A stretch of 64,000 nt of DNA. Origin: Patescibacteria group bacterium (GTDB lineage: Bacteria; Patescibacteriota; Microgenomatia; Levybacterales; UBA12049). The position numbers and the translations under genes were made by a program. Under the pieces are notes generated by a model, which was given only the letters and a program-made list of their open reading frames with translations, was not told the DNA's origin and searched no databases. Where the stretch lies: assembly GCA_038063415.1 (NCBI GenBank), contig JBBTVD010000006.1, forward strand, positions 221,882 through 285,881, in the 5' to 3' direction. This document shows, in pieces, positions 11,677 to 47,236 of this stretch. Every line of letters starts with the position of its first letter. The first letter of the stretch is position 1.

Positions 11677-11681
11677 ACATT

Positions 11682-13613: not shown

Positions 13614-13614
13614 A

Positions 13615-29527: not shown

Positions 29528-29530
29528 CTT

Positions 29531-29601
29531 TCGTCATTCTGGCCGAGTCCAGAATCCGTTTCTATTAAGATCCTGGATGCGCTGCGGCTCACCAGGATGA
29601 C
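29531..29601. repeat. Structured palindromic intergenic repeat, copy 2 of 3, in the dapA-asd spacer
   Basis: cgtcattctggccgagtccagaatc...gatcctggatgcgctgcggctcaccaggatgacg. Same element as 11606-11676. Confidence 0.6.
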
Positions 29602-29625
29602 GGTTAGGTAAGGCAATTTATACTT

Positions 29626-30510: not shown

Positions 30511-31241
30511 ACGATGAGCTCCTCAAACACATCATCAAAAGAATAAAAGCCTTTTTTGTTATGAATAAATCTGGCCGCAACAAGCGCACCCTCAGCAAAG
30601 CCACGTCCACCGCGAGATTGATGAGTAAGAGAAATCTCATCAGCAATACTATCAAAGGTCACTTCATGTCTGCCACGATTATGCCCTCCTCTGAGGGAAG
30701 CAAAATGTAACTCTTCTTTTTTGATTGGCCGATCAATGGCATCGGTCTGGACAACTTTTTTTGCCGGAAAGCTCTCAAGAATGATACTCGTTAGTTTTTT
30801 TGCAGTTCCACTTGGACTATCTTTTTTAGCCGTGTGATGGACCTCAAATCCATACACATCATATGCTTCAAACTTCTGTGCTAGTTTACTGGCATAACCT
30901 GTTAGTTTATAGAAAATGTTAACCCCAATGGAAAAATTTGGACCATAGACAAATGCACCATTTTCTTTTTTTATCATATCTTTTACTTGATCCAAGTTGT
31001 CATACCAACCAGTTGTCCCGATAACCAATGGTTTTTTAAGTTCGAGAATTTTTGGAATGTTTTCAAGAACAATAGCTGCTGAGGTAAAATCTATCACCAC
31101 ATCTGCTTCTTGGATACCTATGATGTCCAGCTCTTTTTGCTCACCATACGAAACAGATACGATTTTATCCGTTGTTGACTGCTCAACAATACTTGCAATT
31201 TCACGTCCAACTTTACCAAATCCAACAAGTGCGATATTCAT
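30507..31241 (-). CDS. dapB: 4-hydroxy-tetrahydrodipicolinate reductase
   Basis: MNIALVGFGKVGREI Rossmann start and the DapB C-terminal domain (HHTAKKDSPSGTA); 244 aa. Confidence 0.9.
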   Translation of the reverse strand: MNIALVGFGKVGREIASIVEQSTTDKIVSVSYGEQKELDIIGIQEADVVIDFTSAAIVLENIPKILELKKPLVIGTTGWYDNLDQVKDMIKKENGAFVYGPNFSIGVNIFYKLTGYASKLAQKFEAYDVYGFEVHHTAKKDSPSGTAKKLTSIILESFPAKKVVQTDAIDRPIKKEELHFASLRGGHNRGRHEVTFDSIADEISLTHQSRGGRGFAEGALVAARFIHNKKGFYSFDDVFEELIV

Positions 31242-32578
31242 TTTGCTCCTTTCTGGTTAATTAACCTTGCATGCAATAATACAACTGCGGTATCAATCTG
31301 CTCAGAAGGAATAACCAAACTGATATTAATATTTGCCGTACTCTGAGAAATCATTTGTGTGACAATATTGTTACTTTCAAATGTTGAAAAAACGGTATGC
31401 ATGATGTGACCAACACTTCCGACGCCTTCGCCAATTAATGCAATCATACCACAACTTTCAGATCGTGTAACGGTACCGATCGCCTTAAGATCAGCCATTG
31501 CGGCAGAAAGATGTTCATCATTTTCTAGAGAAATAGACACACTGACCTCAGACACACTGACTAAATCAACAGAAATATGGTGCTTGGTGAAAAGGGCAAA
31601 AACTTCTGCCAAAAACCCTTTCTTAAAAAGCATCTCTGTTGAATAAATAGTCACGAGTGTTATGTGTTTTTTAGTAGCGATAGCAGCAATACGTTTCTCA
31701 ACAGCAATATCTTTGGTTATAATGGTTCCTTCGTTTGTCGGATTAAGCGTATTACAAACTCGTACAGGAATGTTTTTCTGCATTGCCGGACGAATGGTAC
31801 GAGGATGCAGTACTTTTGCTCCAAAGGCAGCAAGCTCGGCTGCTTCTCGATAGGAAACTTGTGGCAACAGTTTTGCGTCTTTAATAAAACGTGGATCGGC
31901 ACTATAAATACCATCAACATCAGTCCAAATCTGAATTTCTTCTGCAGAAAGCGCGTAGCCAATGATTGCTGCGCTATAGTCAGAACCACCACGGCCAAGC
32001 GTCGTCACTTTTCCGTTGCTAGTTGATCCAATAAACCCAGTAATAACAGGAACGATACCTTCTTTAAGCAATGGATCAAGTATCGCTTTTGTTTTTGCTG
32101 TTGTTTCTTTTGGCAAGAACTCTGCTGAACCAAATTCATTGTCTGTCACAATAAGTTCTGTTGCTTTTATTGCTTTTGCGCTTATTCCAAAGTGGTCCAT
32201 AACTGTAGCAATAAGATAAGAAGACATAATTTCTCCATACGATACTATTGCATCGGATAATTCGCTGTTCTTTTTTTTACTTGCAAGTATTTTTTGTATT
32301 TCTTGCTCGCATTGCTCAAGAAAAGGAAGTACCTGATCTTGGAGAGAAGAGTCGTACTGATCAAGTAATTTACCATGTAAGCCTCGTATTTGGACAAAAA
32401 TACTTTTTCGTTCGTTAACAGAAGCTGAAGGAAGCGAGAGTAATAAATCTGTCACGCCACGAATTGCAGAGACTACAACCACTGGCTGTCGTTCCTTCTC
32501 CTCCTGGACAATAGTACAGATTGTCTCAAGTCTTTCGTGGGTACTGACAGATGTTCCGCCAAATTTTAAAATAATCAT
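31238..32578 (-). CDS. lysC: Aspartate kinase
   Basis: MIILKFGGTSV, an amino-acid kinase fold, and C-terminal ACT domains; 446 aa. Confidence 0.9.
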   Translation of the reverse strand: MIILKFGGTSVSTHERLETICTIVQEEKERQPVVVVSAIRGVTDLLLSLPSASVNERKSIFVQIRGLHGKLLDQYDSSLQDQVLPFLEQCEQEIQKILASKKKNSELSDAIVSYGEIMSSYLIATVMDHFGISAKAIKATELIVTDNEFGSAEFLPKETTAKTKAILDPLLKEGIVPVITGFIGSTSNGKVTTLGRGGSDYSAAIIGYALSAEEIQIWTDVDGIYSADPRFIKDAKLLPQVSYREAAELAAFGAKVLHPRTIRPAMQKNIPVRVCNTLNPTNEGTIITKDIAVEKRIAAIATKKHITLVTIYSTEMLFKKGFLAEVFALFTKHHISVDLVSVSEVSVSISLENDEHLSAAMADLKAIGTVTRSESCGMIALIGEGVGSVGHIMHTVFSTFESNNIVTQMISQSTANINISLVIPSEQIDTAVVLLHARLINQKGAK

Positions 32579-32594
32579 ACAAGTGCTCCTTTCA

Positions 32595-33929
32595 TCAAAA
32601 CTGATTCTCCTTTGGTAGTATTTGTTTTTTGAGAAATGTTTTTGGATGTTCTGATTTTCTTATGACGAAGAATTTTCCATTGTTCACAAGTACTTCGGAG
32701 GCAGTATGCATACTCATAAAATAAGGCATTGCCTCACTCCATCCATAGGCTCCCGCAACAAAAACGCCAATCAGATCTCCTCGTTTGGTATCTTTTGGCA
32801 AAGAGACATCTTTTCGCAAAAAATCTATCGGAGAACACAATGATCCTCCAATATCCATTGTTTCACCTTCCTCTGAATCTAAACGACTGAGGTTGTATGC
32901 TGGATGTGTACTGGCAGTGTCTACCAAACTCGGCCGTAATAAATGATGCACTCCACCATCGACCAGAACTATCTTCTTGCCATAAGACTCTTTTACTGAA
33001 TCTACTCGAGCAATATAAATGCCACTCTGTCCAACAATATATCTGCCTGGTTCAACAGAAAGTGCTACCTTATTTTCTTGCAAAAAAGGGAACGCAGCCA
33101 GCACATCACCAAGTTTCTTTGAGATAGTTGCAAGCTGTAATGGTTGCTCTGACTCAGCATAAGGAATACCCAATCCTCCACCAAAATCAATCGATCGAAT
33201 TGGGAAATATTTATTGAGTTTTTGAGCAACTCGACAAATATTTGTGACATTCGTTAAAAAAGTTTCTGTGTTGAGCATATTTGCTGCATAGACATGCATA
33301 CCAACAAGTTCACTATGTGGTAATTGTTGCACCCTTTGGATAAAGTCTTTGGTAACTATCGCTTCATCGATGCCAAATTTGGATACACCCCCAGCCATTA
33401 TTTGATGTGCTGCATGCTCTGTTGGTTGTTCGATGTTTATCCGAAGTGCAATTCGTTGCCGTACTCCTTTTGCTTTTGCGATAGTATTGATTCGCTCTAT
33501 TTCTTCTTCACCTTCTACATTGATGACATCAATACCATAGGAGATAGCAAACGCAAGTGCTTCATCAGTTTTTACTGGCCCAGCAAAAGAAACTTTTTTT
33601 GGATCTGCTCCAATTTTTTGTGCAACGAGTAATTCACCAAGAGATGCAACATCAAGTCCTGCACCTAATTTGTATAAACCATCGACAATCGCAAGTGCGG
33701 TGTTTGGTTTGACTGCATAATAGATAGAAATCCCATATGGAGCAAGTGCATCACGCAGTCCTTCATACTGTCTTTTGATTGTTGCAGCATCATAGACATA
33801 GAAAGGTGGAGGGACTTTGGCTACAATTTCTTCAAGAGAAACACCACTAATAAAAAAGCTCTCTTTTCCCTGATGTTTTTCCGTCGCAAAACTTTCACTT
33901 ATCCAACTTGTTTTATTTTTTACTGCCAT
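32595..33929 (-). CDS. lysA: Diaminopimelate decarboxylase (PLP-dependent Orn/DAP/Arg decarboxylase family)
   Basis: YYAVKPNTALAIVDGLYKLGAGLDVASLGEL, the PLP-binding Lys region, and a C-terminal beta-sandwich. Confidence 0.88.
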   Translation of the reverse strand: MAVKNKTSWISESFATEKHQGKESFFISGVSLEEIVAKVPPPFYVYDAATIKRQYEGLRDALAPYGISIYYAVKPNTALAIVDGLYKLGAGLDVASLGELLVAQKIGADPKKVSFAGPVKTDEALAFAISYGIDVINVEGEEEIERINTIAKAKGVRQRIALRINIEQPTEHAAHQIMAGGVSKFGIDEAIVTKDFIQRVQQLPHSELVGMHVYAANMLNTETFLTNVTNICRVAQKLNKYFPIRSIDFGGGLGIPYAESEQPLQLATISKKLGDVLAAFPFLQENKVALSVEPGRYIVGQSGIYIARVDSVKESYGKKIVLVDGGVHHLLRPSLVDTASTHPAYNLSRLDSEEGETMDIGGSLCSPIDFLRKDVSLPKDTKRGDLIGVFVAGAYGWSEAMPYFMSMHTASEVLVNNGKFFVIRKSEHPKTFLKKQILPKENQF

Positions 33930-35086
33930 TTTGAAAAAACTCCTTTCATTCGTTCCAGTCCTTCTGTTATTTCCTCTTCCGATGCTGCATACGAAAGTCT
34001 GATAAAATTTCTCCCAGCAGATCCAAAAGCAAGCCCTGGAACTGTTACCACATTTGCTTCCTCAATTAACTTTTTGGCAATATGCATGCCATCACCAAAT
34101 CTTGATACGTCAACAAAATAATAAAATGCCCCATGCGATTCTTGAACACTAAGTCCATTAATTCCTTTGAGGAGTTTCCCCATTAGCTTCCTTCGAGTAG
34201 CAAGTTGCTCATGATAAAAAATAAGTTCTTCTTCACATGCTCCTTGCACCACAGGAAGTGCCGCATATTGCGAATCAGTTGGGGCACACACATACGCTGC
34301 CTGCTGGGATTTGACCGCATCTTTGATAAAAAAATCAGGACCGACTAACCAACCAAGTCTTTTCCCTGTTTGACTTGCTTGCTTTGATAACCCATCTATA
34401 ATAATTGCACGGTCTGTATACTCAGCAATTGAATGATGCTTTGCTCCGTCAAAAATACAGGTAGAATAAATCTCATCTGAGAGAAAGAATAATGATGGAT
34501 GATCTGTTGTTTCTTTTGCTAGTATTTTTAATACGTTTTCTGAGGCGACTTGTCCTGTTGGATTAGAAGGAGAGTTAATAACGATAATTTTTGTCTGAGG
34601 AGTTATTTTTTTCAAAAGATCAGCTACATCAACATCAAACCTGTCGGTTAGTGCATAAGTAATTACTTTTGCTCCCCATTTTCCAGGAAGGGTTTTATAG
34701 AGAGGATAAAAAAGTGCAGGAATTAATACTTCATCCCCAGGATTAAGCATTGTTTCAAAGGTAATAAAAAGCCCACCTGTTGAGCCGGAAGTAATAATAA
34801 CGTTCTCACGATTTGCTTCAAAAGAAAACGTGTTTTTGTAATTGCTAGCAATAGCATCACGCAACGCTGGTAAACCCGCATTTGGCGTATAGCCAGTTTT
34901 CCCTTCAGTAATTGCCCGACGATTTGCTTCTTGTGCTTTTTGCGGCATAGGAAACGGTAGCTCCCCTAATCCCAGACTAACTCTGGATAATGTTCCGGTA
35001 TAGGGTGTTTCCATAATTGAACGAATGAGCGATATTGCTGTTTGTGCAATTCGTTCATTCGGTTGGTAATAGTGCTGCATGCTCAT
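33920..35086 (-). CDS. dapC: Class I (AspC-like) aminotransferase, probably N-succinyl-diaminopimelate aminotransferase
   Basis: Fold-type I aminotransferase motifs (NSPSNPTG, the PLP Lys region SKQASQTGKRLG). The assignment as dapC is inferred from its position between dapD and lysA. Confidence 0.65.
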   Translation of the reverse strand: MSMQHYYQPNERIAQTAISLIRSIMETPYTGTLSRVSLGLGELPFPMPQKAQEANRRAITEGKTGYTPNAGLPALRDAIASNYKNTFSFEANRENVIITSGSTGGLFITFETMLNPGDEVLIPALFYPLYKTLPGKWGAKVITYALTDRFDVDVADLLKKITPQTKIIVINSPSNPTGQVASENVLKILAKETTDHPSLFFLSDEIYSTCIFDGAKHHSIAEYTDRAIIIDGLSKQASQTGKRLGWLVGPDFFIKDAVKSQQAAYVCAPTDSQYAALPVVQGACEEELIFYHEQLATRRKLMGKLLKGINGLSVQESHGAFYYFVDVSRFGDGMHIAKKLIEEANVVTVPGLAFGSAGRNFIRLSYAASEEEITEGLERMKGVFSKWQ

Positions 35087-35970
35087 CGCAAAGCCTCCTC
35101 AAGTAGTGTTTTGAGAGCAGTTTTTTCATCTCGATATTTGATAATAACTGGCACTTGGATATGAATACCTTGTGCATCAGCAAATGCATTCTCACCTTTT
35201 GGCCGTGTCCCATTCACAACAACTGCTCCTTCTGGGATTTCAAGAGGCGTACTCCTTGTTGCTCTATACACTTTTTCCTTAACTAAATCATATACAGGTG
35301 TTGCCGAGGTAATATTGACGCCAGGTGTCAGAACAACCCGAGAATGAAGAATAACTCCTTCTGCAATTGAGGTATTAATACCCATAAGCACCTCATCCTC
35401 AACAATACAAGGATTTGCATTTACTGGCTCAAGCACTCCTCCAACTTGCGCACCTGCTGAGATGTGGCATCGCTCCCCAACCTGTGCACAACTTCCAACA
35501 AGCGCATGCGAATCAATCATCGTACCGCTCCCAATGTAGGAGCCAATAGCAATATAACTTGGCGGCATGACAATCACATTTTTGCCAAAATAAACGCCAT
35601 CCCGAACACTCGTCCCACCAGGCACAATACGCAAGTTATCACCAGCAAAATCAAACGAGCGCAACGGTAATGTATCCTTATCTGAAAATTGAAGTGTTTC
35701 TTTTTTGTGAGACATCCTTGTGAGTTCTCCCAAACGCATACAGACCAAGATGCCTTCTTTCACCCAGGCATTTGCTTGCCAGATTCCTTTTGTATTTTTT
35801 TCAGCCGAACGAAGAGATCCCTCGTTGAGCGCTTGAAGAAAGGCTACAACAACAGCGTGAGCAGCAGCAGTACGACGCAATTCTTCGACTGAAAGTGTTG
35901 CTAACGCTATCATTTTTTTGTGTAATTGTTCTTTTCTCATAGTATTAGTATAAACAGACAGCTTCAACAA
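35083..35970 (-). CDS. dapD: Tetrahydrodipicolinate N-succinyltransferase (hexapeptide-repeat)
   Basis: GSLRSAEKNTKGIWQANAWVKEGILVCMR and TMIDSHALVGSCAQVGERCHISAGAQVGGVLEPVNANPCIVED match E. coli DapD closely ([63 protein letters not shown]). Confidence 0.88.
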   Translation of the reverse strand: MLKLSVYTNTMRKEQLHKKMIALATLSVEELRRTAAAHAVVVAFLQALNEGSLRSAEKNTKGIWQANAWVKEGILVCMRLGELTRMSHKKETLQFSDKDTLPLRSFDFAGDNLRIVPGGTSVRDGVYFGKNVIVMPPSYIAIGSYIGSGTMIDSHALVGSCAQVGERCHISAGAQVGGVLEPVNANPCIVEDEVLMGINTSIAEGVILHSRVVLTPGVNITSATPVYDLVKEKVYRATRSTPLEIPEGAVVVNGTRPKGENAFADAQGIHIQVPVIIKYRDEKTALKTLLEEALR

Positions 35971-37005
35971 TAGCCACCTGTTTTTCTAAATCTGCAACGG
36001 CAATTGATTCATGAGTACTATGTGAATCGTTTGTCCCATCGCCGATATTAACTACCTGAAGTCCTTTTTGATTAAAGTAATTCGCATCCGAAACGCTCCA
36101 ACTTTGAGTATATACTGGATTAATTTTCTGCTGTCGCATAACTTCGGCGATCGATTGTACCCATGGATCATTCTCGGCAAAACGGTACACTCGTTGCTCA
36201 AGTTGTGCTGTTGTCTGTGCTTTAAGTTGATACTTCGTTGCAATCGACTCTACTTGGGTAAACACTTTTTGTGTATAGGTGTGCAAACGTTCTTCATCAA
36301 AACCACGCATATCTCCTTGAAGGATCCCTTCACCAGGTACAGTATTGCGAGTAGAACCAAACTTACCGACACCGATATTAAAGGTTGTCTGATTGTCAAG
36401 ATGTCCTGTTTTTACTGAAGTTAATAATTCTCCAAGTGCAGGGATTATGCTTTTTGCTCTTTCAGGGAAAGATGAGTGACCGCTTTTCCCAATCAAGGAG
36501 ATATCAATACGCATATATGCTGCTGAACCCAGCACTATAGTTCCAACTGGTAAAGCAATATCACAAATAAGTCCCTTGGTTGCGGTAAGTTTTTTGTAAT
36601 TAAATCCCAAAGCACCTGTATTGGTTGACTCTTCATCAACAGTAAACAGTATTTCGAGTGGGCGATGTTCTTTCTCTTTAATTCGTTCGATCACTTCCAG
36701 GATAACGGCAATCATAACTTTATTATCTGCTCCAAGGATAGTATCTCCTTGCGATCTGATTACGCCATCCTCAATGAGAGGAACGATACCGCGCCCTGGT
36801 TCAACGGTATCCATATGTGCGGATAGAAAGAGCGGTTCGCCCTTGCCAGATATACGTACAAAAACATTGCCTATCGTATCTTTCTCAACAAAAATATTTC
36901 TTTGTGCAAAATGAGACATAAGATACGCAGCCATTTTTTCTTCATGACCGGTTGGACTGTCGATTTGTACCAATTTTATAAAAGTATCTATTAGACTATT
37001 CATAT
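35945..37005 (-). CDS. dapE: M20-family metallopeptidase, probably succinyl-diaminopimelate desuccinylase
   Basis: M20 motifs (SAHMDTVEPG, GKSGHSS). Start set at MNSLIDT (37005), which is preceded by AGGAGA. The ORF-track start (37030) would run through the terminator hairpin. Confidence 0.7.
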
Positions 37006-37015
37006 TTCTCCTCAT

Positions 37016-37155
37016 AAAAAAACCCCTCATCGGAGGGGTACTTCTTCTGCGTCAGCAAAAATTCCCCTCTTACGAGAAGCGCTTCTTGCCGATTAATTTC
37101 ACAGATGCTATAGTCATATAAGACCTATATTAACAGAGAGTAATCAAAATAACAA
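37016..37155 (-). promoter_or_regulatory. Putative promoter plus attenuator leader for the lysine operon: TTGTTA-N17-TAATAT, a 15-aa leader ORF (MTIASVKLIGKKRFS) and mutually exclusive antiterminator/terminator hairpins (GAGGGG ... CCCCUC ... GAGGGG-U7)
   Basis: On the minus strand, -35 is at 37155-37150 and -10 at 37132-37127. The leader ORF runs 37117-37070 and contains AAA and AAG-AAG Lys codons. Segment 1 GAGGGG (37069-37064) directly abuts the stop codon. The terminator is CCCCUC-CGAU-GAGGGG (37038-37023) followed by U7 (37022-37016). Confidence 0.4.
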
Positions 37156-37165
37156 GAGGATAAAG

Positions 37166-37660
37166 ATGGCAAAGACAATAAAACACACTACAGGAAATAA
37201 CATTGCTATTACTGCGCTTATTATTTCTATCCTTAGTTTATTACTTAATTTTTATTTCTCTTTTGATACGACAAACTTTGAACGAGTATCCAGAAGCCAA
37301 GAACTTGTGGATGCAAATTATGAGCTTTTGTATGATGGTGGCACCAATCAGAAGATTATGCATGCCATAAAAAATGGAGAAGATATTACTCCTCTTTTTT
37401 CAAAAGAAGAGATTAATCAGTATATTGACGTATTTGAAGGATTAGGTGCATATTATTGCCAAGGTGATGTCTATAAAAAAAGTCTTACGAATACGTTTTA
37501 TAACTCACTACAATACTATTGTGAAGATCCGTATATCTTCCAAAACTTTAAAGGGAAAAAGAATGGCTCAGCAACGCTTTGTGCGGCATTTTTTCCAAAC
37601 TCAAAATTTGCTCAGACAGTTGATACAACAAATCTCAATACCTGTCATTTTAGGAACTAA
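37166..37660 (+). CDS. Hypothetical membrane-anchored protein (N-terminal TM helix); no recognisable domain
   Basis: Good RBS AGAGGA 8 nt upstream of the ATG. 164 aa with an N-terminal hydrophobic helix (IAITALIISILSLLLNFYF). Convergent 4-nt overlap with murB. Confidence 0.5.
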   Translation: MAKTIKHTTGNNIAITALIISILSLLLNFYFSFDTTNFERVSRSQELVDANYELLYDGGTNQKIMHAIKNGEDITPLFSKEEINQYIDVFEGLGAYYCQGDVYKKSLTNTFYNSLQYYCEDPYIFQNFKGKKNGSATLCAAFFPNSKFAQTVDTTNLNTCHFRN

Positions 37661-38667
37661 TGCACAATCTCCACCTCAACCTCAGGCATAAAACCAAAGG
37701 TTTCTGAAACCTTTTCTTGGATATGTCCGATAATCGTTAAGACATCCGCGGCTTTCCCCTCACCAAGATTAATAATGAAATTGGAGTGTTTGGTAGAGAC
37801 TTCCATATTGCCAATGCGATAGCCTGAAAAGCCTAAGCGTTTAATAATATACCCCATTGATACCTTCCCATGCCAGCGATCGGTGATAAACTCCTGTGTG
37901 TCCGGCCAAATGGTCAAGACTTTCTGGACATTTTTTTGATCACGAATGTTCTTAAAGACGGAACCACAAGTAGGGTATTCAATGGGATGATGCTCTTTTC
38001 GATATAAGATATTCTTGGCAGCTACTTCTTGTGCCTGATCGAACTCGGTGTCATTTGCTGCATGCATGCCAAAGAGTGCGGACATCACCAGTAATTTTTT
38101 TTCTTGCTTGATCGAGCTCTCTCGGTAGGCAAAGTGTAATTGCTCATTGGTTAGTCGGGAAAAGTGAAACCCTTCTTCCCGCAGATCAAGGACTTCAGCA
38201 CTCACCAAACGATCTTTGATTTCCCCCCCAAATGCCCCAACGTTCCCCCGTACCCCAGCACCCACCGTCCCGGGAAGTCCACCTGCCCATTCAAGTCCAG
38301 TTAGTTTTTGGGTAAAAGAATAGGTGATCAGATCATCGAGAATCACTCCAGAGAAAGCCTCAATCATATTGTCAGGCTTCACGACCATACCATCTGTTGC
38401 ATGTTTTGGTGACGCAATTTGGAGTACTGCTCCATCAAAGTACTCATCAGGCATAATGAGGTTGGAGCCAAGCCCACAGACAAAAAGACGCTTGGGCTTT
38501 TCTTTGTTGATAAAATCAAGGGATCTGAGGAGACCTTCGCGGTTTTCGGCCAAGAGAAAATGGCGTGCAACACCCCCAACCTTATACCAGGTTATTTTTG
38601 AAAGAGGGAAGTCAGAAAAAACATGCATATGCAGCTTCATTCTAGTCAATTTTGTAAGAATACGCAA
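37657..38667 (-). CDS. murB: UDP-N-acetylenolpyruvoylglucosamine reductase
   Basis: FAD-binding PCMH domain (ITWYKVGGVARHFLLAENREGLL...LFVCGLGSNLI) and the MurB C-terminal domain; 336 aa. Confidence 0.88.
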   Translation of the reverse strand: MRILTKLTRMKLHMHVFSDFPLSKITWYKVGGVARHFLLAENREGLLRSLDFINKEKPKRLFVCGLGSNLIMPDEYFDGAVLQIASPKHATDGMVVKPDNMIEAFSGVILDDLITYSFTQKLTGLEWAGGLPGTVGAGVRGNVGAFGGEIKDRLVSAEVLDLREEGFHFSRLTNEQLHFAYRESSIKQEKKLLVMSALFGMHAANDTEFDQAQEVAAKNILYRKEHHPIEYPTCGSVFKNIRDQKNVQKVLTIWPDTQEFITDRWHGKVSMGYIIKRLGFSGYRIGNMEVSTKHSNFIINLGEGKAADVLTIIGHIQEKVSETFGFMPEVEVEIVH

Positions 38668-38988
38668 TGACCTGGTAAATGACGGTTCGAATCTGTGTAC
38701 CCTATCGCCTCAGAAATTGTTCTCTAAGCTAGAATGTAGGATACCATTCCATAATTAAACTGCTTTATTACGATGCATGGAAAAGAATCTACGCCACGCC
38801 AAGACAATCTTGCTACATTACCTGAAAGAAAACAAGCCGAAGCATTAGCCAGAGCCAATTTAGGACTTTATCGTCCCGACAATTTAGTAGTATCCCTCAG
38901 ACGGATAGCACAAAAGACAGATGCTTCGATGTGGACAAATAGACTTACTCAAGGAGATGATGTTGAGACAGCTGCTTATTTTTTAGTA

Positions 38989-40788
38989 CTAGGACTGTAT
39001 TTCGGCTTCAGAAACCAGATTCTCAGGTAAACGGAAAATCCCTTCATCAAGCCTTTTTTGATCAAGGAAATGAGAGATAAACCCAACAGAGCGGGAAAGC
39101 ACAAAAAGAGCGTTAAAGAATTCACTTGCCACCAGTCGCTTCAGTTCACGATCAGAGACTCCTTCTTTTTCTGACAAAAGGTCCAGAAGCACCGCAGCAA
39201 TCGCGCCATCAACATTAAGGATGAGATTACCTTTTTTTGCTGTAGTAATCTTTTCAACAGAGAGTGCAAAGTGAGTAAAGCGTTTATGTGTTAACGATTT
39301 GGCAAACTGTTCGATTTCTTTGACCCGTGGATCGGGAGCGTCACTACGATACTTTTTGTGACCAATACCGGAGATGTATTGTCTTTTACTTGCAAACTCC
39401 TCGACAAAATTAGCAGGGTCTTTTTCTGAGCTAACACCTGTCAGCCAATTGGCTGCAGCTTGGTTAATTGCTCCACCAAATCGTGGCCCAATAGTAAGCA
39501 GTCCAGCAGAAAGTGAGGAAACCAGATCGCGTCCTGCTCTTGCCGTCACAATCGTATTCATCGCTCCAGAAACGTACGGCCCATGATCAGCAAGAAGCCG
39601 TAGAACAAAATCCGTAAAGTTCTCGAGTTCTTTGGAATGGATCTTCTTGCCCAAGAACATCGACATGACCAGGGTTGCAAACGACTCTTGTTTAACAATG
39701 GTCAATAAATCTTCTCCCAAGAGTTGCGGTTGTCCGTTCTTCACTCCAGAAATACTGGTGGTGATAAGCGCCCGTTGACGATTAATAAGGCTGTCGATAT
39801 CAAAGGTATAAGCTAACCCTTCAGGCACAAAGTCTTCAGGAATTGCTTGAATTTGACTCAGAAACTCAGCGTATGAATCAGCAACCTGTGCTCCTGATTG
39901 ACGAAGCATGATTCGTTTCCCGCGAGCACTTTCTTCTTGCTTTGATGCCATAGCTTTTGCATGACCAAACTGCGGGGGAGTGACAAACATTTCAGCAACG
40001 GTTCCAGCGATATAACAAATAACTTTCTTCGTTATTTTTTTTGCTTTAAGTAGATCAGCAAGTAGCGCTTCATCCGTCCCTCCGAGTTCACCAAAATACA
40101 CGATTGTCTTGGTCTGTGGGTCTTTTTCTGCTGCCAGAAAAGCCATCTCAGGCGTCGTCATCGGGAAGCGCTCACCACCAAATGACAATGAGAAAGAAAT
40201 TCGCTTGCCATAATGGGTAACCGTATTAATAATTTCATTGGTCATTCCACCAGATGAAGATAACACCGCCACTGATCCTGGAGTAAAAAGATGTGCAGTT
40301 GTTAGTTGTCGCACGTCTACCCCACCAATGGCTCCAAGCTTCATTACCGAGGGAAGAATAATACCGATACTCGCAGGCCCAGTCAGAAAGATTTTTTTCT
40401 TTTGCGCTTGCGCGTAGAGTGCAATAGCATGTTGTTCTGGGACATTTTCGGCGAAAACAATCCCACCAATCAAAGAGGGAAGAGTAGTAAGTGCTTCTTC
40501 CGTTGAGGAAAAGGTTCTTCTCCCCGATGAGAGATTAATAAAAAAGTTTGCTTCCTCTCGAATCTTTTTGGGGACATCACTGACTGATGGGAAGACAGGG
40601 ATGAGCACTTCACGCTTTCCCCAGAAGTATCGTTCGTAATTGCGTCCTGCTGCGATAATTGCTCTGATACTTGGTTCCTTTTTCCCGGATACATAATCAA
40701 AATCAAGCATTGACTGCATGATTGCAGGATAGCTACCAAGAGCAATTACTTGCACCTGTGTTTTTCGTAATGTTTGAATGTCTAACAT
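38989..40788 (-). CDS. aclA: ATP-citrate lyase alpha-type subunit (CoA-binding plus CoA-ligase domains, fused to a citrate-synthase-like C-terminal domain)
   Basis: Phospho-His region PPQFGHAKAMAS. C-terminal segments HGPYVSGAMNTIVTARAGRDLVSSLSAGLLTIGPRFGGA, IGHKKYRSDAPDPRV, LILNVDG and GFISHFLDQKRLDEGIFRLP mirror the ACLY citrate-synthase-like domain. The start is set at MLDIQ (40788), 1 nt after the aclB stop. ORF-track start is 40920. Confidence 0.85.
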   Translation of the reverse strand: MLDIQTLRKTQVQVIALGSYPAIMQSMLDFDYVSGKKEPSIRAIIAAGRNYERYFWGKREVLIPVFPSVSDVPKKIREEANFFINLSSGRRTFSSTEEALTTLPSLIGGIVFAENVPEQHAIALYAQAQKKKIFLTGPASIGIILPSVMKLGAIGGVDVRQLTTAHLFTPGSVAVLSSSGGMTNEIINTVTHYGKRISFSLSFGGERFPMTTPEMAFLAAEKDPQTKTIVYFGELGGTDEALLADLLKAKKITKKVICYIAGTVAEMFVTPPQFGHAKAMASKQEESARGKRIMLRQSGAQVADSYAEFLSQIQAIPEDFVPEGLAYTFDIDSLINRQRALITTSISGVKNGQPQLLGEDLLTIVKQESFATLVMSMFLGKKIHSKELENFTDFVLRLLADHGPYVSGAMNTIVTARAGRDLVSSLSAGLLTIGPRFGGAINQAAANWLTGVSSEKDPANFVEEFASKRQYISGIGHKKYRSDAPDPRVKEIEQFAKSLTHKRFTHFALSVEKITTAKKGNLILNVDGAIAAVLLDLLSEKEGVSDRELKRLVASEFFNALFVLSRSVGFISHFLDQKRLDEGIFRLPENLVSEAEIQS

Positions 40789-40789
40789 A

Positions 40790-42025
40790 TTAGATTGTTT
40801 TAATTGCTTTACCAATAATGTCTGGCAGGGGAGTGGTCTGGTCTCCAACAAACCCCAATAGTTTTTCTTTTTCAAGAAATGCTTCCATCTGGGCAAGTCC
40901 TTCTTCTTGATGTGGTCCACCTCGTCTGACGAATACTTGAATATGCTGCTTATGCAATGCTCCTGCTACTTCTTGTAATGCTCGTATCAGTCCACTAAAG
41001 GTAATTCGAACATCTGAAAAATTGGCAACGCCTCCAGCAATGATGAGTACTTTCTTTTTTGCTTTTGATCTCAAAAGGAGACTTACCAAATTTTTGGTAT
41101 ATAAATATACTTCTTCAGCATTGGGGTTACCACTGTATTCCCCATAGTTGGCAAGTTGTTTACCATAACCCAAATTATATCCTTCATCAGCAAGCACAAT
41201 ACTTGCCCCTCCACCGGAAAGAAGCATAAAGATGCCGCCATCCAAGTTGAGCATCTCAAGACTAAATGACGCTTGGCTTTTTTCGGACAATGCGTCTATG
41301 TTGTTTTCTTCTGTCGTTTTCTCTCTGGTCTGCGCTGCTCGGAAATCTGTTTCTGTCCAGGCATGGTGGACAAAAAAGAGTCCCGAACTATCAACTTCAG
41401 CCGCAACATCAAGCAGTGAGATGTTAGTTCCTTCCACTACCAATGGATTTATTTCAAAAAAAGAGAAATGATACTCATTAAAGGTAGAAATAAGTTTTTT
41501 TAAAAATTCTTTTGGCAAATTTAAAGCCTTTATAACTTTGTCATTCTCGCGAAGGCGGGAATCCAGCCCTGCTAAAGCACGATCCATAGATTCCGGCTCG
41601 GAGGCCGGAATGACAGGAATAAGCAGTTGATTAATTGAATTCCGATTCTCTTCAATATCGATCCCTCCCTTTACTGAAAATAACACTTCGATACCTTCAC
41701 GCGTCCGAGAAAGTGAAAGATACTTTTCTGATTCTTGTGAATGGGGGAGAAATGCTTCAATAATGACATGCGAGTATCCCTTGGCAAACAGTTTCTTTGC
41801 TTCCTTCTCTACATCAATTGACGAAACCTTCAGCGCGACAAGCCCTTGTTTCATGCGCTTTTTGACTCCTTCATCGACTTTTACGACATACGTCTGTTTC
41901 GGATCAAGTTTTTCAAGTATTTTTCTATCATCAGTTTTTGTAAAACTAATCCCCTGGTAGGGGAGACCGAGTTCTTTTGTGAGGATTCCTTTTGCACTGT
42001 ATTCACTTATTTTTTTTCGTGCCAT
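40790..42025 (-). CDS. aclB: ATP-citrate lyase beta-type subunit (ATP-grasp, SucC-like, corresponding to the ACLY N-terminal half)
   Basis: [41 protein letters not shown] and [15 protein letters not shown] correspond to the ACLY motifs [41 protein letters not shown] and IFVRRGGPNYQEGL. Confidence 0.85.
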   Translation of the reverse strand: [411 protein letters not shown]

Positions 42026-42052
42026 GAGGTAATTATACCATGAGTTAAGGAG

Positions 42053-43810
42053 TTAATACTCTTCAAGAGTTGAGGTGTCTCCAACTTCTTGTCCGAGCTC
42101 TTTTGCTTTAAGGATTCTCCGCATAATCTTTCCCGAACGAGTCTTGGGGAGCTTGTCAATAAAAGCAATCTCTCGAGGATAGGCATGCCCTGCAAGATGT
42201 TTTTTGACATGTATCTTAAGTTTTTCTTTCAGTTCATCGTTTTGTTCAACACCTGGTTTTATGACAACAAATGCTTTGATAATCTCCCCTCTGACTGGAT
42301 CTGGCTTGCCAATAACTCCTGCTTCAACCACGTCAGGATATTCCACAAGGGCACTCTCCACTTCAAATGGTCCGACTCGCTCCCCGGCGGTATTGATCAC
42401 ATCATCAGCTCTCCCGATAAACCAGAAGTAGCCATCTTTATCTTGGTATGCCTTATCACCCGAAAGATACCATTGACCATTAAAGTAAGAATCAAACTTT
42501 GCTTTATTGTGCCAGATTGTTTTCATGAGAGAAGAAACAGTGCTTGCTTTGAGTGCCAGATGCCCTTCCTCCCCTACTGGTACTTCCTTACCCTCATCAT
42601 CGATAATAGCAGCTTTTATTCCTGGTAACGGTTTCCCCATTGAACCAGGCTTTATGTCCAGAGCAGGATAGTTGGTAATACTAATCCCCCCCAGTTCTGT
42701 CTGCCACCACGTATCATGAAATGCTAGCCCGTACGTCTCAAGACCCCACCAGATGGCTTCAGGATTGAGTGGCTCCCCCACACTGCAAAGATGTCGCAAA
42801 GAAGAAAGGTTAAACCCTTTGACATCAACCGTTGCTCCCATGAGCAGTCGAATTGCTGTGGGAGCGGTATACCAGACGGTTACTTTGTATTCTGCAAGAA
42901 GCGTATGCCAATTCTCAGGATTAAACCTTCCTTCATAAAGAACGGATGTGCTTCCAAGCCCCATGGGGCCAAGCACGCCGTACACAACCCCTGTTACCCA
43001 GCCAAGATCTGCCGTACACCAATACACGTCATCTTCATGGAGATCGAGCACATATTTGGTTGTTACCATAGCTTGCAGAACATCATAATGACTGTGGACA
43101 ACTCCTTTTGGCTTGCCTGTTGTTCCTGAAGTATAAAGCATGTACGAGTAGTCTTCTTTTTGCATATGGGCGATTGCAAAGTTGTCGCTAGCTTTTTTCA
43201 TCTCTTCTTCGTAAGAAATGATGTTCTCTCCTACCGGCTTAGTTACTGACCCCCGACCAATAATAATCACTTTCTCAAGATGAGGCAGGTCTTTCCAGAT
43301 CTTTTCGATTCGAGGATAAAGAGAAGCTGTTGTTATCACGACTTTGGCTTCACTATCGGAAAGTCGGTCGGAAAGCGCCATCTCCTGAAATGCGGAGAAA
43401 AGTACTCCCGCAATCGCTCCTACTTTGAGCGTCCCGAGGAAGGCAACTACACGCTCTGGAATCGCTGGAACAAAGAGAAAGACTCTATCGCCTTTGTGGA
43501 CATCATACGAGGTAAGTACATTGGCAAACTTGTCCGTTAGTTTCTTAAGCTTTGCATACGAATATACTTCTTTGTCACCATCTGCACTTTCAAAAAGTAT
43601 TGCAGCTTTATTTTTGTTCTTTCCTTTGGCATGTCGATCAACACAATTGTACGCGATGTTTAGTGTCCCATCAGGAAAGAACTCTATCAGCTCTTTCTCT
43701 GCTTTTTGCCACGTAAACACTTTATATGTTTTTGTGTAAGTAGTTATATTTGGCGCTACAGGAACATTCTGTATCGCTTTTTTAATGATAGTTCCTTTCT
43801 GTGTGTTCAT
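42053..43810 (-). CDS. acs: AMP-forming acetyl-CoA synthetase family (acetate-CoA ligase-like)
   Basis: AMP-binding motif YTSGTTGKPKGVVHSH, then WWQTELGG, YLSGDKAYQDKDGYFWFIGRADDVIN and the C-terminal lysine region. 585 aa. Its start abuts the xfp stop. Confidence 0.8.
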   Translation of the reverse strand: MNTQKGTIIKKAIQNVPVAPNITTYTKTYKVFTWQKAEKELIEFFPDGTLNIAYNCVDRHAKGKNKNKAAILFESADGDKEVYSYAKLKKLTDKFANVLTSYDVHKGDRVFLFVPAIPERVVAFLGTLKVGAIAGVLFSAFQEMALSDRLSDSEAKVVITTASLYPRIEKIWKDLPHLEKVIIIGRGSVTKPVGENIISYEEEMKKASDNFAIAHMQKEDYSYMLYTSGTTGKPKGVVHSHYDVLQAMVTTKYVLDLHEDDVYWCTADLGWVTGVVYGVLGPMGLGSTSVLYEGRFNPENWHTLLAEYKVTVWYTAPTAIRLLMGATVDVKGFNLSSLRHLCSVGEPLNPEAIWWGLETYGLAFHDTWWQTELGGISITNYPALDIKPGSMGKPLPGIKAAIIDDEGKEVPVGEEGHLALKASTVSSLMKTIWHNKAKFDSYFNGQWYLSGDKAYQDKDGYFWFIGRADDVINTAGERVGPFEVESALVEYPDVVEAGVIGKPDPVRGEIIKAFVVIKPGVEQNDELKEKLKIHVKKHLAGHAYPREIAFIDKLPKTRSGKIMRRILKAKELGQEVGDTSTLEEY

Positions 43811-46603
43811 TTATTTCTCCTCTTTTTTCATTTCTTTGTATGCATCCATAATACAAAAATTGGTGACTAGTGACAAACCATAATCCTGTGCAAACGCTAC
43901 GGCCTCTGGGCTACTCACGCCATCTTGCAGCCACACCATACGGATATCCCCTCGTTCGACCACTTCCTGCAAATGGGGAATTACTTCTGTCGGCCTGCGA
44001 AAGATGTCAACGATATCTATGGGAATTTCTTTGGGTATAGCTTGTAATGTTGCATAAGACTTCTCACCAAGGATAGTAGTAAGTTTTGGGTTCACTGGAA
44101 TGATTCTATAGCCTTTTCCCTGGAAATATTTTGCGACTCGATAACTGTGTCTTTCAGGATTATCCGACAAACCAATCACCGCAATGGTACGAGCATACTT
44201 CAATACATCCTCATAATTCACATCACTTCCGATTTCTTTCATTGAACGTTTTCCTGCCCATTGCCAGTTCTCAATCGCGCCAGGATCTGCTCCAACTTTG
44301 GTGATGTAAATAAAGTGATCCTTGAGAGCTTTCTTATACTTTTTAATCAGTGTCGCAGCTTTTGATGGCATGATTGCATGTTCATGCACAGCTTTTTCAA
44401 GTGTTTCTATCGCAAGGTGATACCTGTCTGTTTCGTTACGAACCTGCATATCAAAGGGCGTGGTCGTTCCTCCTTCTTCACGATAGCCATGGATACTAAA
44501 CCGTTCAGGGTGCTTCACCGTAAAGAGCATACTTTTAAGTACTTCAGGATATCCATGGAAGGTCACAATGACGGACTTATCAACCGTCAAGTATTTCTCT
44601 GCATCAGGAATTTGTGGCTGGAAATGATCGGTTAGCGCTGATGCAGCTTGGAGTCGAAGCATATTGACGAAACGAATACGTACTTCTGGAGCATCTTGTT
44701 TGACCAGTTCAATCGCAGCAAGAGCCTCTTTGGTAACATAATCACCAATGCCCACAAGCACCACATGCGGATTATCATCACTGGCAAAGTCCCACGTTGC
44801 AATCCCTTTTTTGAGCGCCTGTTTTGCTTGAGGATACGTTAACCAACGAGGTTCAGGAGTTTTGCCAGCAACAACAATATTCATTTGATTTTTAGACGCC
44901 ATTGTCTCATCAAGGGTAGCCAGCATACTATTGTCATCAACGGGGAAATATACCTTGATAAAATCATTTTGTTTTTCAAGCATGCCAGAGATAAAACTAG
45001 GGTTTTGGTGGGAGTACCCATTGTGCTCCTGTCGCCAGGCTGTTGAGGTCAAAAAATAATTAATCGAAGGGATGTCTTCTCGCCAAGGCATCTTGCGGAC
45101 ATATTTCAAAAACTTCTGATACATATGACTCATACTTGAGAAAATCTGGGAGAAAGCTTCATACGTCGTAAAGACCGCATGACGACCAGTTAAGACATAC
45201 CCCTGGGCAAGTCCATGCATCGTGTGTTCTGAAAGCATTTCCATCACACGACCATCGGTAGTGATATCTTTGTCTCCTGGATCATGCGGCCAGACAAATC
45301 CCCGCGCTGTTTCTGTAAACACAGCATCAAGCCGATTAGAATAGGTTTCATCAGGAGACATAAGACGGAAGTTCTTTTGTTTTTTGTTGAGGGCAAAGAT
45401 TTCTTTGAGATATGTTCCTGCCATACGCATTGCATTTGAGTGAATCTCACCGGGTGTTTCAAGTGGCTTTGCGAGCTTCTTGCCATCAGGTAAGGTAAGT
45501 GGTGTATAATTTTTGCCAAACATGTGCGGATTATCTCCCAATCGGAGATCCCCTGTTGGAATGCTATCCGTTACTTCTTTTGCAAAACCTTTTGTACGAT
45601 CAAAGAGTTCTTCAAAATGGTACGAGCGCAACCACTCTTCCAAGGCCTGCAGTTCTTGCTCATCACCTCGAACATTGGGCATAACCACTTGATGGGCTTG
45701 TATTGTTCCCTCAATGGCTTTCCCTCGAAGCTTTTTGATCGTCGTCCAGCCTTTGGGAGTCTGAAGAATAATCATTGGGAATCGAGGTCTGACGGCATCT
45801 TTTTTCTTGGCTGACTCCTGAATTGCACGAATACGCTGATAACACGTCTCCATCGTCTCTGCCATTTCTTCATAAATATTTTCTCCTCCGACAAAAAATG
45901 GTTCGTACCCATAGCCAGTGAAGAGTGCTTTTAGTTCTGTTTTACTCATCCGACCAAAGATTGTTGGACCTGAAATTTTGTAGCCATTGACATGCAGGAT
46001 TGGAAGGACTGCTCCATTGGTTGCTGGATTAATGAGTTTATTGGTATGCCATGCAGCGGCAATCGCGCCAGTCTCAGCTTCTCCATCGCCAATCAAGCAA
46101 ACTGCCAGAAGATCAGGATTATCAAGCACTGCTCCGTAGGCTGAAGCAAGTGAATAGCCAAGTTCTCCACCTTCAAGAATTAACCCAGGAGTTTCGGGAC
46201 TACAATGACTGGAAAAGCCATACGGCCAGGCAAACATTTTGGAAACGTATTTGATACCTTTCTCGTCAAGCGTTGCCTGTGGGTAGTATTTTTTAAGCGT
46301 ACCTTCAAGAAATAAATTTGCCTGGAGACCCGGCATCCCATGCCCTGGACCAAGGACAAAAACTGATGACTGATTGTGTCTTTTGACAAGCGCATTGGTG
46401 TGAGCATAGACAAAGTTTATTCCAGGACAAGTTCCCCAATGACCAAAAAGTTTTGGTTTGATATCAGATGACTTAAGCGGACGCTCGAGAAGAACGTTCT
46501 CCTGAAGATAGATTTGGGTAACCGTCAAATAGTTTGCGGCTCGTACATATGTTTTGATTTGCTCGATAGTTGTGTTCATAAGTAGTATAGATTTACTTCC
46601 CAA
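43811..46603 (-). CDS. xfp: Xylulose-5-P/fructose-6-P phosphoketolase fused to a C-terminal CoA-binding domain (YccU/PF13380-like)
   Basis: Xfp motifs GHWGTCPGINFVYAH, GPGHGMPG and TPP-binding GGELGYSLASAYGAVLDNPDLLAVCLIGDGEAETG. The extra ~140 aa at the C-terminus are ARTIAVIGLSDNPERHSYRVAKYFQGKGYRIIPVNPK...DIVDIFRRPTEVIPHLQEVVERGDIRMVWLQDGV, which is the CoA-binding Rossmann-like domain pattern. Confidence 0.85.
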   Translation of the reverse strand: MGSKSILLMNTTIEQIKTYVRAANYLTVTQIYLQENVLLERPLKSSDIKPKLFGHWGTCPGINFVYAHTNALVKRHNQSSVFVLGPGHGMPGLQANLFLEGTLKKYYPQATLDEKGIKYVSKMFAWPYGFSSHCSPETPGLILEGGELGYSLASAYGAVLDNPDLLAVCLIGDGEAETGAIAAAWHTNKLINPATNGAVLPILHVNGYKISGPTIFGRMSKTELKALFTGYGYEPFFVGGENIYEEMAETMETCYQRIRAIQESAKKKDAVRPRFPMIILQTPKGWTTIKKLRGKAIEGTIQAHQVVMPNVRGDEQELQALEEWLRSYHFEELFDRTKGFAKEVTDSIPTGDLRLGDNPHMFGKNYTPLTLPDGKKLAKPLETPGEIHSNAMRMAGTYLKEIFALNKKQKNFRLMSPDETYSNRLDAVFTETARGFVWPHDPGDKDITTDGRVMEMLSEHTMHGLAQGYVLTGRHAVFTTYEAFSQIFSSMSHMYQKFLKYVRKMPWREDIPSINYFLTSTAWRQEHNGYSHQNPSFISGMLEKQNDFIKVYFPVDDNSMLATLDETMASKNQMNIVVAGKTPEPRWLTYPQAKQALKKGIATWDFASDDNPHVVLVGIGDYVTKEALAAIELVKQDAPEVRIRFVNMLRLQAASALTDHFQPQIPDAEKYLTVDKSVIVTFHGYPEVLKSMLFTVKHPERFSIHGYREEGGTTTPFDMQVRNETDRYHLAIETLEKAVHEHAIMPSKAATLIKKYKKALKDHFIYITKVGADPGAIENWQWAGKRSMKEIGSDVNYEDVLKYARTIAVIGLSDNPERHSYRVAKYFQGKGYRIIPVNPKLTTILGEKSYATLQAIPKEIPIDIVDIFRRPTEVIPHLQEVVERGDIRMVWLQDGVSSPEAVAFAQDYGLSLVTNFCIMDAYKEMKKEEK

Positions 46604-46702
46604 GCTAAGGGGAACATTCCTCCTTGCCTGCTCTCTTAATCAATACGCTACTGCTCAGACAAGACGATACACAATCATCCGTCTAAACTATTCTCTTTCG
46701 GC

Positions 46703-46760
46703 CGTCATCCTGGTAAACGAAGTGCATCCAGGATCGATTCTGGACAAGCCAGAATGACGG
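46703..46760. repeat. Structured palindromic intergenic repeat, copy 3 of 3, inverted orientation and lacking the 10-nt internal spacer, in the greA-xfp spacer
   Basis: The reverse complement reads ccgtcattctggcttgtccagaatcgatcctggatgcacttcgtttaccaggatgacgg. Same element as 11606-11676 and 29531-29601. Confidence 0.6.
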
Positions 46761-46762
46761 TG

Positions 46763-47236
46763 TCAACCAATAGACACGACTCTATACATAACTGTTCCTG
46801 CTGGGGCTTCAACAGCAACCTCATCACCAACGGTTTTTCCAAGTAATGCTTTCCCAAGTGGTGATTCATGGGAAATTTTCTTTTGCTCAGGATCTGCCTC
46901 CCATTCACCAACAACATGAAAGACTGCTTCACGTGAGTTAATCTTGACCGTCACTTGTGAACCAAGCTCAACCATATTTGATGTATGATTACTATCATCG
47001 ATCAAAACAACTTGTTTCAGTAATAATTCAAGTTCTTCAATGCGTCCATCGATAAACGCGAGTTCTTCTTTTGCTGCAATATATTCTGCATTTTCTGAAA
47101 GATCTCCTTGATCGCGTGCTTCAGAAAGTCGTGCAACAATAGCCGGACGTTTCGTATTAAGGAGTTCGTTATATTCTTTTTTAAGGTCGTCAAGACCCTG
47201 TTTGGTGAGATACATTTTTTTGCTGTTTGGATTCAT
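46763..47236 (-). CDS. greA: Transcription elongation factor GreA
   Basis: N-terminal coiled-coil (YLTKQGLDDLKKEYNELLNTKRPAIVARLSEARDQGDLSENAEY) and a C-terminal FKBP-like domain; 157 aa. Confidence 0.9.
   Translation of the reverse strand: MNPNSKKMYLTKQGLDDLKKEYNELLNTKRPAIVARLSEARDQGDLSENAEYIAAKEELAFIDGRIEELELLLKQVVLIDDSNHTSNMVELGSQVTVKINSREAVFHVVGEWEADPEQKKISHESPLGKALLGKTVGDEVAVEAPAGTVMYRVVSIG

Follow-up and report, generated by a model that had tools for sequence, protein, structure and literature searches.

The window, a 64-kb stretch of DNA, comes from a Levybacteria-like Patescibacteria bacterium of the candidate phyla radiation (CPR) in Hainich groundwater and carries on its minus strand a row of four genes, xfp, acs, aclB and aclA, between the backbone genes greA and murB (Table 1). 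Proteins identical to those of the window are found on Hainich groundwater contigs (ENA ERZ1292660) and on a 380-kb GenBank contig titled 'Patescibacteria group bacterium'; the closest named AclA homologues belong to Candidatus Levybacteria/Levyibacteriota, and those of AclA and Xfp together to Levybacteria and Patescibacteria. An earlier note had described the row as a single operon devoted to acetyl units, and its description of the genes holds. Reading of the open reading frames (ORFs) and their junctions shows all four to be intact and tightly spaced, at 0, 27 and 1 nt, and Pfam and NCBIfam agree on the identities of xfp with its CoA-binding domain, acs, aclB, aclA and greA. The TAA stop of xfp is followed directly by the ATG of acs, with a GAGGAG motif within the 3' end of xfp, while acs and aclB are separated by the 27-nt spacer and aclB and aclA meet at TAA-T-ATG. 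As the note proposed, the 599-residue aclA product starts at ATG 40788 rather than at the longest-ORF GTG 40920; the TTG at 46603 with which the note began xfp, again that of the longest ORF, gives way to ATG 46579, the more likely start according to homologues and gene callers. The upstream backbone gene greA encodes a transcript cleavage factor and lies outside the metabolic modules discussed below.

By every sequence criterion tested, aclB and aclA encode a two-subunit ATP-citrate lyase (ACL) of the eukaryote/Methanothrix type. AclB matches residues 52-392 of human ACLY, its N-terminal half (E 4e-60), as well as Methanothrix ACLY-A (4e-55), and has the ATP-grasp plus citrate-binding architecture of this subunit (PF24948 and PF16114, E 6e-49). 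Human ACLY binds citrate through G309, N346, T348 and R379; three of these are identical in AclB, and T348 is conservatively replaced by serine (aligned motifs EYSG, ANFS and VRRGG). AclA consists of a CoA-ligase part with the phospho-histidine and a citryl-CoA lyase, or citrate-synthase-like, domain, and aligns over its full length with human ACLY (E 1.5e-106), Methanothrix ACLY-B (5e-104) and Chlorobium AclA (3e-70), scoring 360 and 352 bits against the eukaryote/Methanothrix type compared with 241 bits against Chlorobium AclAB. Its phospho-histidine loop reads QFGHAKA where human ACLY has QFGHAGA (H760), FAENVPE stands for human IAEGIPE with E599 conserved, and H276 is invariant in 27 clade members. 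The lyase motifs ADHGP, GIGH and LNVDG are likewise conserved, their H402, H477 and D527, equivalent to human H900, H975 and D1026, being invariant in the clade. The closest solved relatives, human ACLY (6hxh, 6uuz) and Methanothrix ACLY-A/B (6hxi, 6znw), have the same domain order, which is here distributed over two genes. GenBank names the aclA product (MEK7571109.1) 'citrate/2-methylcitrate synthase', and a preprint (bioRxiv 10.1101/2022.10.25.513756) reports that citrate-cleaving enzymes of CPR carry wrong annotations, as succinyl-CoA synthetase or as citrate synthase. In the papers found, aclAB of CPR receives only passing mention, PMC12577380 reporting it as enriched in Saccharimonadia.

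To place the pair in context, AclA was scanned against one genome per species. A relative is encoded in 312 species-level genomes, of which the best 80 loci, all CPR-like, were fetched and searched with the window proteins by tblastn; the comparison covered 83 other ACL loci, and 173 loci were fetched in all. aclB and aclA are paired in 77 of the 80. Their commonest neighbour is murB, downstream of aclA in 35 loci, followed by EF-G (27), greA (12, upstream), glmS (6) and ddl (4), and no tricarboxylic acid (TCA) cycle genes occur among the clustered neighbours of aclBA in these 80 loci. In contrast to known two-subunit AclAB systems, the pair thus sits in a CPR genome beside murB and housekeeping genes, with no genes of the reductive TCA (rTCA) cycle nearby: neither 2-oxoglutarate:ferredoxin oxidoreductase nor fumarate reductase nor other rTCA enzymes are encoded in the window or among the frequent neighbours in the 80 loci. 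Carbon fixation through the rTCA cycle was therefore rejected as the likely role of this ACL, given the lack of partner genes locally and among neighbours and a CPR physiology that speaks against it. The presence of aclAB in such genomes should accordingly not be counted as evidence for rTCA carbon fixation, as automated pipelines do.

The first gene of the row encodes a phosphoketolase of variant architecture. Residues 4-774 of Xfp align end to end with phosphoketolases in the PDB (9cd3 among them; E 1e-219), and the protein scores 913 bits on the NCBIfam phosphoketolase subfamily NF003616 (cut-off 777). The ThDP (thiamine diphosphate) motif GDGE 164-167 and H47, H80, H125, H296 and H524 are invariant in the 120 best Xfp matches (69-75% identity to the window protein), these histidines presumably corresponding to the catalytic histidines of the Bifidobacterium enzyme. 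Canonical single-function Xfp is about 790-830 residues long; at 922 residues and with a C-terminal PF13380 domain, the window Xfp is therefore filed as a variant. Its last ~135 residues match the stand-alone CoA-binding proteins 2duw, 1iuk (TT1466) and 2d59 (PH1109) with E values of 4e-24 to 7e-20. In an AlphaFold2 model of the fusion both parts are predicted confidently (pLDDT, the per-residue confidence score, 80-93 in the CoA domain), joined by a poorly conserved linker that appears disordered (residues 777-787, pLDDT <50).

PF13380 is present in all 120 of these matches, whose named hosts include Levybacteria, Saccharimonadia, Dormibacteraeota and Limnocylindrales, and G803, S805, N830, P831, D855, D858, F860 and R861 of the domain are invariant among the 120 fusion proteins. 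By sequence the domain falls in the same fold family as E. coli YccU, T. thermophilus TT1466 and P. horikoshii PH1109, and it also gives weak matches to the CoA-binding domain (domain 1) of ADP-forming acetate-CoA ligase. In contrast to the stand-alone PF13380 proteins, it is carried on a ThDP enzyme that makes an acyl-phosphate, and the fused domains form a subgroup of their own. Once two short matches (181 and 265 aa; 64-73% identity), probably pieces of fusion proteins, are set aside, the best stand-alone representatives are at most 49% identical. Searched against representatives at 50% identity, the CoA domain retrieved no full-length fusions, which are probably clustered under unfused Xfp representatives. 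Our literature search found no description of an Xfp-CoA-binding fusion and no function assigned to the YccU-type stand-alone CoA-binding proteins.

Genomic context separates fused from unfused phosphoketolases. A metagenome scan for the fusion returned at least 80 loci, those listed comprising 75 with unfused Xfp (52-61% identity), which served as a control set, and five short fused loci; nine fused loci had enough flank to be informative. acs adjoins fused xfp in seven of the nine (the window, L085, L165-L168 and L172) and none of the 75 unfused genes (p = 8e-9), whereas ackA, the acetate kinase gene, adjoins none of eight informative fused loci and 50 of the 75 unfused ones (Fisher p = 3.5e-4), in 46 of those 50 immediately downstream. 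The full-length Xfp core is what the window enzyme shares with the Xfp-AckA module of the bifid shunt and heterolactic pathways, known also from Saccharibacteria (PMC6031116); it differs from that module in its extra C-terminal CoA-binding domain and in a neighbour that is AMP-forming Acs and never AckA. Acs itself retains the C-terminal motif PKTRSGKIMRR with the catalytic, acetylated lysine.

The conserved unit, overlooked by the earlier note, is therefore the Xfp-CoA-binding fusion together with Acs, and it occurs in two very different genome contexts. Loci L165-L168 have the window-type backbone VanW-SBP-NTase-greA...murB and carry xfp-CoA and acs between greA and murB, with no aclBA there. 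On the 1.9-Mb contig of L172, in an unrelated gene context, fused xfp and acs overlap by 4 nt. In relatives, xfp is preceded by a promoter-like signal, TTGACC-17-TATAAT. The fusion with its fixed Acs partner is widespread in soil and groundwater lineages and apparently undescribed. Some genomes have possible users of acetyl-CoA adjoining the module: the gene for a small hexapeptide-repeat (LbH) transferase between acs and murB in two Levybacteria (L166, 12553-13005; L167, 12533-12982) and a GlmU-like NTP_transferase+Hexapep gene adjoining fused xfp in L089 (2797-4041). In L172/L173 (9001-17764), xfp-acs is followed by a gene of the PGM/PMM family, an unannotated ORF, an archaeal-type PEP carboxylase (PEPcase_2) and a thiamine pyrophosphokinase, a sugar-phosphate, ThDP and oxaloacetate context for the pair.

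Several features of the row suit a single operon, namely a common strand, short spacers and the lack of any terminator-like site at the junctions of the four genes, that between acs and aclB included; an internal promoter-like element and an order that is not conserved speak against one. The 27-nt acs-aclB spacer holds an extended -10-like box, TGGTATAAT, which ends 6 nt before the aclB ATG, and has no Shine-Dalgarno motif. We compared the regions upstream of aclB in the window, L003-L082 and L169-L171. Of 78 related loci, 52 have a -10-like hexamer whose end lies 4-12 nt ahead of the aclB start; the count is 10 of 78 in a control region and 9 of 79 upstream of aclA (Fisher p = 4e-12); 25 of these 52 boxes have a TG extension, and SD-like motifs precede aclB in only 6 of 78 loci. 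From these motifs, aclBA very probably has a promoter of its own, and they point to a leaderless or very short-leader mRNA across the radiation. Without a terminator between acs and aclB, read-through from acs is possible. Given both the aclB box and the separate promoter of xfp in relatives, the row is better read as two units, xfp-acs and aclB-aclA.

The neighbourhoods of related genomes agree with this division. A single conserved operon of four genes does not survive the comparison with relatives that the earlier note had set as its own refuting test: no other genome examined has the row, xfp being linked to aclBA in none of the 83 other ACL loci (9-10 kb of flank covered) and none of the seven other fused-xfp loci with usable flank. 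The same count bears out the note's remark that a phosphoketolase gene beside ACL is unusual. What relatives share is the backbone VanW(-)-SBP-NTase-greA...murB...lysRS. All three of the nearest AclA relatives (69-71% identity) have the order greA-tdh-kbl-aclB-aclA-murB, tdh and kbl being named by NCBIfam at scores just under the equivalog cut-offs. In a neighbour-joining tree of AclA the window nests among six genomes with this arrangement, and so xfp-acs has replaced tdh-kbl, another acetyl-CoA module, beside aclBA in the lineage of the window. The kbl-tdh threonine cleavage operon occupies the exact position of xfp-acs in these relatives and likewise yields an acetyl-CoA unit; it is absent from the window, and its substrate, threonine, and its chemistry differ from those of xfp-acs.

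Other arrangements recur. acs adjoins aclBA in two of the best 80 loci, as greA-acs-aclBA (L009) and as aclBA-acs (L034), and tdh-kbl lies downstream of aclA in L020 and L075, as does kbl in L048, and upstream of aclBA in L024 and L027, which are more distant. Within the Levybacteria clade of the window, the greA-murB interval holds aclBA, tdh-kbl, acs, and xfp-CoA with acs in varying combinations, and in about 20 related genomes these make up most of its non-backbone genes, in keeping with the acetyl-phosphate, acetate and acetyl-CoA theme that the earlier note had seen in the row. Unrelated cargo, namely toxin-antitoxin, NUDIX, HAD, glyoxalase and DUF3182 genes, also occurs in the interval in relatives; in one close relative (L170, 6642-7805), a DUF3182 protein of 387 aa is inserted between kbl and aclB. 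That either main module is found at the site without the other suggests that the two can stand in for each other as sources of one product.

CPR bacteria are regarded as having next to no acetyl-CoA metabolism, although making cell-wall precursors requires acetyl-CoA. We favour, at a probability of roughly 55%, the reading that two acetyl-CoA-node modules have been juxtaposed by recombination at a variable greA-murB locus that supplies acetyl-CoA, and perhaps oxaloacetate, to a host probably lacking pyruvate oxidation and a TCA cycle. In this scheme, the phosphoketolase would cleave xylulose-5-phosphate or fructose-6-phosphate to an acetyl unit and glyceraldehyde-3-phosphate or erythrose-4-phosphate; the acetyl unit would bypass acetate kinase and its ATP and join acetate, scavenged through Acs, in the acetyl-CoA pool. 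aclBA, expressed from its own -10 box, would most likely cleave scavenged citrate to acetyl-CoA and oxaloacetate, and tdh-kbl, at the same position in sister genomes, would turn threonine into glycine and acetyl-CoA. The clients of the acetyl-CoA may be GlmU-type and other acetyltransferases of cell-wall precursor synthesis, murB flanking the row here and glmS or ddl elsewhere, and oxaloacetate may pass through aspartate to diaminopimelate (DAP) and lysine, for which genes lie just downstream. The reading is favoured because either module occurs alone and because of what is reported for similar organisms. Patescibacteria metagenome-assembled genomes (MAGs) from the Hainich aquifer have no complete TCA cycle, ackA in only 6% and the step from pyruvate to acetyl-CoA in only 14% (PMC8672522), and Saccharibacteria lack both pyruvate dehydrogenase (PDH) and pyruvate:ferredoxin oxidoreductase (PFOR) (PMC6031116). 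The same-aquifer MAGs also lend weight to the earlier note's suggestion that the host may lack a full TCA cycle; within the window, no pta, ackA or TCA genes are present.

The co-located producers of acetyl-CoA would fit at least as well a pathway in which ACL is their consumer, and this weighs against a supply locus. There, xfp-CoA/acs in the window, and tdh-kbl or acs in relatives, would make acetyl-CoA, and ACL would work backwards, as a citrate synthase that conserves ATP (acetyl-CoA + oxaloacetate + ADP + Pi -> citrate + CoA + ATP), feeding a short oxidative branch to 2-oxoglutarate and glutamate or yielding ATP by substrate-level phosphorylation. The earlier note's route from sugar phosphates to citrate and oxaloacetate comes close to this idea; it is one possible direction only, and not the one we favour. 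The ACL reaction is near equilibrium, different acetyl-CoA-making modules directly adjoin aclBA in at least five arrangements, as is usual for suppliers and users, and the window enzyme is of the eukaryote/Methanothrix rather than the Chlorobium rTCA type. A literature search on ACL as a citrate synthase in Methanothrix returned nothing informative. With ackA rare in these organisms (PMC8672522), another means of conserving thioester energy would be useful. Reverse operation nevertheless appears unlikely to us, since it needs stoichiometric oxaloacetate, for which no source is visible, and since genes for aconitase, isocitrate dehydrogenase, an enzyme that forms oxaloacetate or a citrate exporter are found neither beside aclBA in the 80 loci nor in the window. 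Genomes of the same backbone that hold either module alone fit interchangeable suppliers better than an obligate supplier-user pair, and the predicted promoter of aclBA points the same way.

The greA-murB interval may instead be a recombination hot spot at which xfp-acs and aclBA are independent and their adjacency has no pathway meaning. The restriction of the row to a single genome, the unrelated cargo at the same interval and the separate promoter-like signals of the two modules are what such accidental neighbours would show, and the pattern on which we rely may in part reflect such a hot spot. As a full account it seems improbable, because most of the non-backbone genes in the interval belong to four systems that make or use acetyl-CoA, because tdh-kbl lies both upstream and downstream of aclBA and does so also in distant subclades (L024, L027, L075), and because only 27 nt and no terminator separate acs from aclB. 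Two further points count against a supply locus: the sample of fused-xfp loci is small, four of the nine (L165-L168) coming from one clade, and a passage of oxaloacetate into aspartate and DAP is suggested by gene proximity only.

What the fused CoA-binding domain contributes is a separate question. Phosphoketolases are subject to allosteric regulation by metabolites, and the domain may be a non-catalytic sensor that tunes the enzyme to the pool of free CoA or acetyl-CoA, a role to which we give somewhat less than an even chance. Acetyl-phosphate would then be handled by phosphotransacetylase (Pta), AckA or acylphosphatase encoded elsewhere, and Acs would only recapture acetate. The small stand-alone CoA-binding proteins to which the domain is homologous have no known catalytic residues, and it is attached through a flexible, poorly conserved linker; both points are in line with a sensor, which alone, however, leaves unexplained why the fused enzymes have lost ackA and gained acs as a neighbour. 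A bolder and rather doubtful possibility is that the fusion passes the acetyl unit straight to CoA, the tethered domain positioning CoA to capture, in the active site, either acetyl-phosphate or the intermediate acetyl-ThDP, so that sugar phosphate would be converted to acetyl-CoA without Pta. Acs would then either add acetyl-CoA made from acetate to the same pool or work in reverse, forming ATP from AMP and PPi. Were direct transfer to hold, the fusion would offer the first functional clue to the uncharacterised YccU/TT1466 family of small CoA-binding proteins and would be relevant to the design of carbon-conserving phosphoketolase pathways, which now need a separate Pta.

The protein families involved are all known; what is new is the fused Xfp with its fixed Acs partner, the swapping of modules beside aclBA and the conserved promoter motif at the start of aclB. 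If the site is a supply locus, one chromosomal position by cell-wall genes would accommodate interchangeable sources of acetyl-CoA, with ACL drawing on citrate, Tdh-Kbl on threonine, Acs on acetate and a modified phosphoketolase on sugar phosphates, and the locus and its variants would yield testable predictions of which substrates these episymbionts obtain from the host or the environment.

Table 1 Features of the window at and around the greA-murB interval.
Feature	Position	Strand	Evidence and remarks
greA	46763..47236	-	Pfam GreA_GreB_N + GreA_GreB; NCBIfam NF001263, 177 bits (cut-off 145)
Structured repeat, copy 1	46702-46760	-	just past the greA stop
xfp	43811..46579 (stop codon 43811-43813)	-	922 aa; Pfam XFP_N, XFP, XFP_C, CoA_binding_2; GenBank MEK7571112.1
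CoA_binding_2 (PF13380) domain of Xfp	43847..44191	-	residues ~797-911; Pfam E 3e-36
acs	42053..43810	-	Pfam AMP-binding + AMP-binding_C; NCBIfam NF003313, 812 bits (cut-off 729)
Extended -10-like box TGGTATAAT	42032..42040	-	candidate promoter element of aclB, in the acs-aclB spacer
aclB	40790..42025	-	ATP-grasp + citrate-binding; Pfam Citrate_bind E 6e-49, Citrate_synth_N
aclA	38989..40788	-	599 aa; Pfam Ligase_CoA + Citrate_synt; GenBank MEK7571109.1
85-aa ORF	38773-39030	+	antisense to the 3' end of aclA; probably spurious
murB	37657..38667	-	NCBIfam TIGR00179, 173 bits (cut-off 144.5); downstream backbone gene
asd, dapA, dapB, lysC, lysA, aminotransferase, dapD, dapE	28421..37030	-	Pfam on the same genes in L002 and L083
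dapD	35083-35970	-	NCBIfam NF008808, 273 bits (cut-off 204)
Structured repeat, copy 3	~29569-29603	+	intergenic
Class I lysyl-tRNA synthetase	26116-28407	-	763 aa; extra C-terminal B3_4 domain
Structured repeat, copy 2	~11620-11680	+	intergenic

The GC content at third codon positions (GC3) is 0.34-0.39 in xfp, acs, aclB and aclA and 0.45 in murB, above the 0.26-0.32 of the flanking genes greA, SBP, dapE, dapD, the aminotransferase gene, lysA, lysC and lysRS, which fits either a foreign origin or a different codon selection. Misbinning or contamination was rejected, because the genes sit in a syntenic CPR backbone common to many genomes and an AclA relative is encoded in as many species-level genomes as given above. 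Loci L004, L006 and L007 and about 40 others come from third-party annotation (TPA) MAGs titled 'uncultured Gammaproteobacteria bacterium', yet their genes and synteny are Levybacteria/Saccharimonadia-like, and the titles look like a placeholder or wrong taxonomy.

As the earlier note observed, the row is preceded by a copy of a structured repeat, one of three in the window. Exact and degenerate pattern searches, folding and alignment define an element of about 60 nt with an outer stem (CCGTCAT.CTGG...CCAGGATGACGG) and inner hairpins. It has no match in Rfam and was on that ground rejected as a known RNA, and the only one of the 173 fetched loci to contain it is L001, from the same organism as the window. 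The copies differ in how they are oriented relative to the minus-strand genes that flank them, which makes the repeat unlikely to be a dedicated regulator of the xfp-acs-aclBA cluster.

Some irregularities of gene calling occur around the row. The small ORF antisense to aclA is a called gene in two assemblies and matches no family. In the ENA contig L001 of the same organism murB is broken into two ORFs (13398-14398), and in L024 (6377-7591) tdh is joined, in frame, to an N-terminal GreA domain; in each case an artefact of assembly or a frameshift seems to be the cause.

The remainder of the window consists of housekeeping genes and the aspartate-to-DAP/lysine gene set. In the latter, dapA and dapD score above their NCBIfam cut-offs, and the aminotransferase is closest to GntC, then to aminotransferase A and then to aspartate aminotransferase, all below cut-off. 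DapD scores as a tetrahydrodipicolinate N-succinyltransferase and far lower on the acetyl-type model; the host probably has no TCA cycle to supply succinyl-CoA. The lysyl-tRNA synthetase with the additional B3_4 domain is also present in L166 and L171, but not in L170, where the protein has 510 aa.

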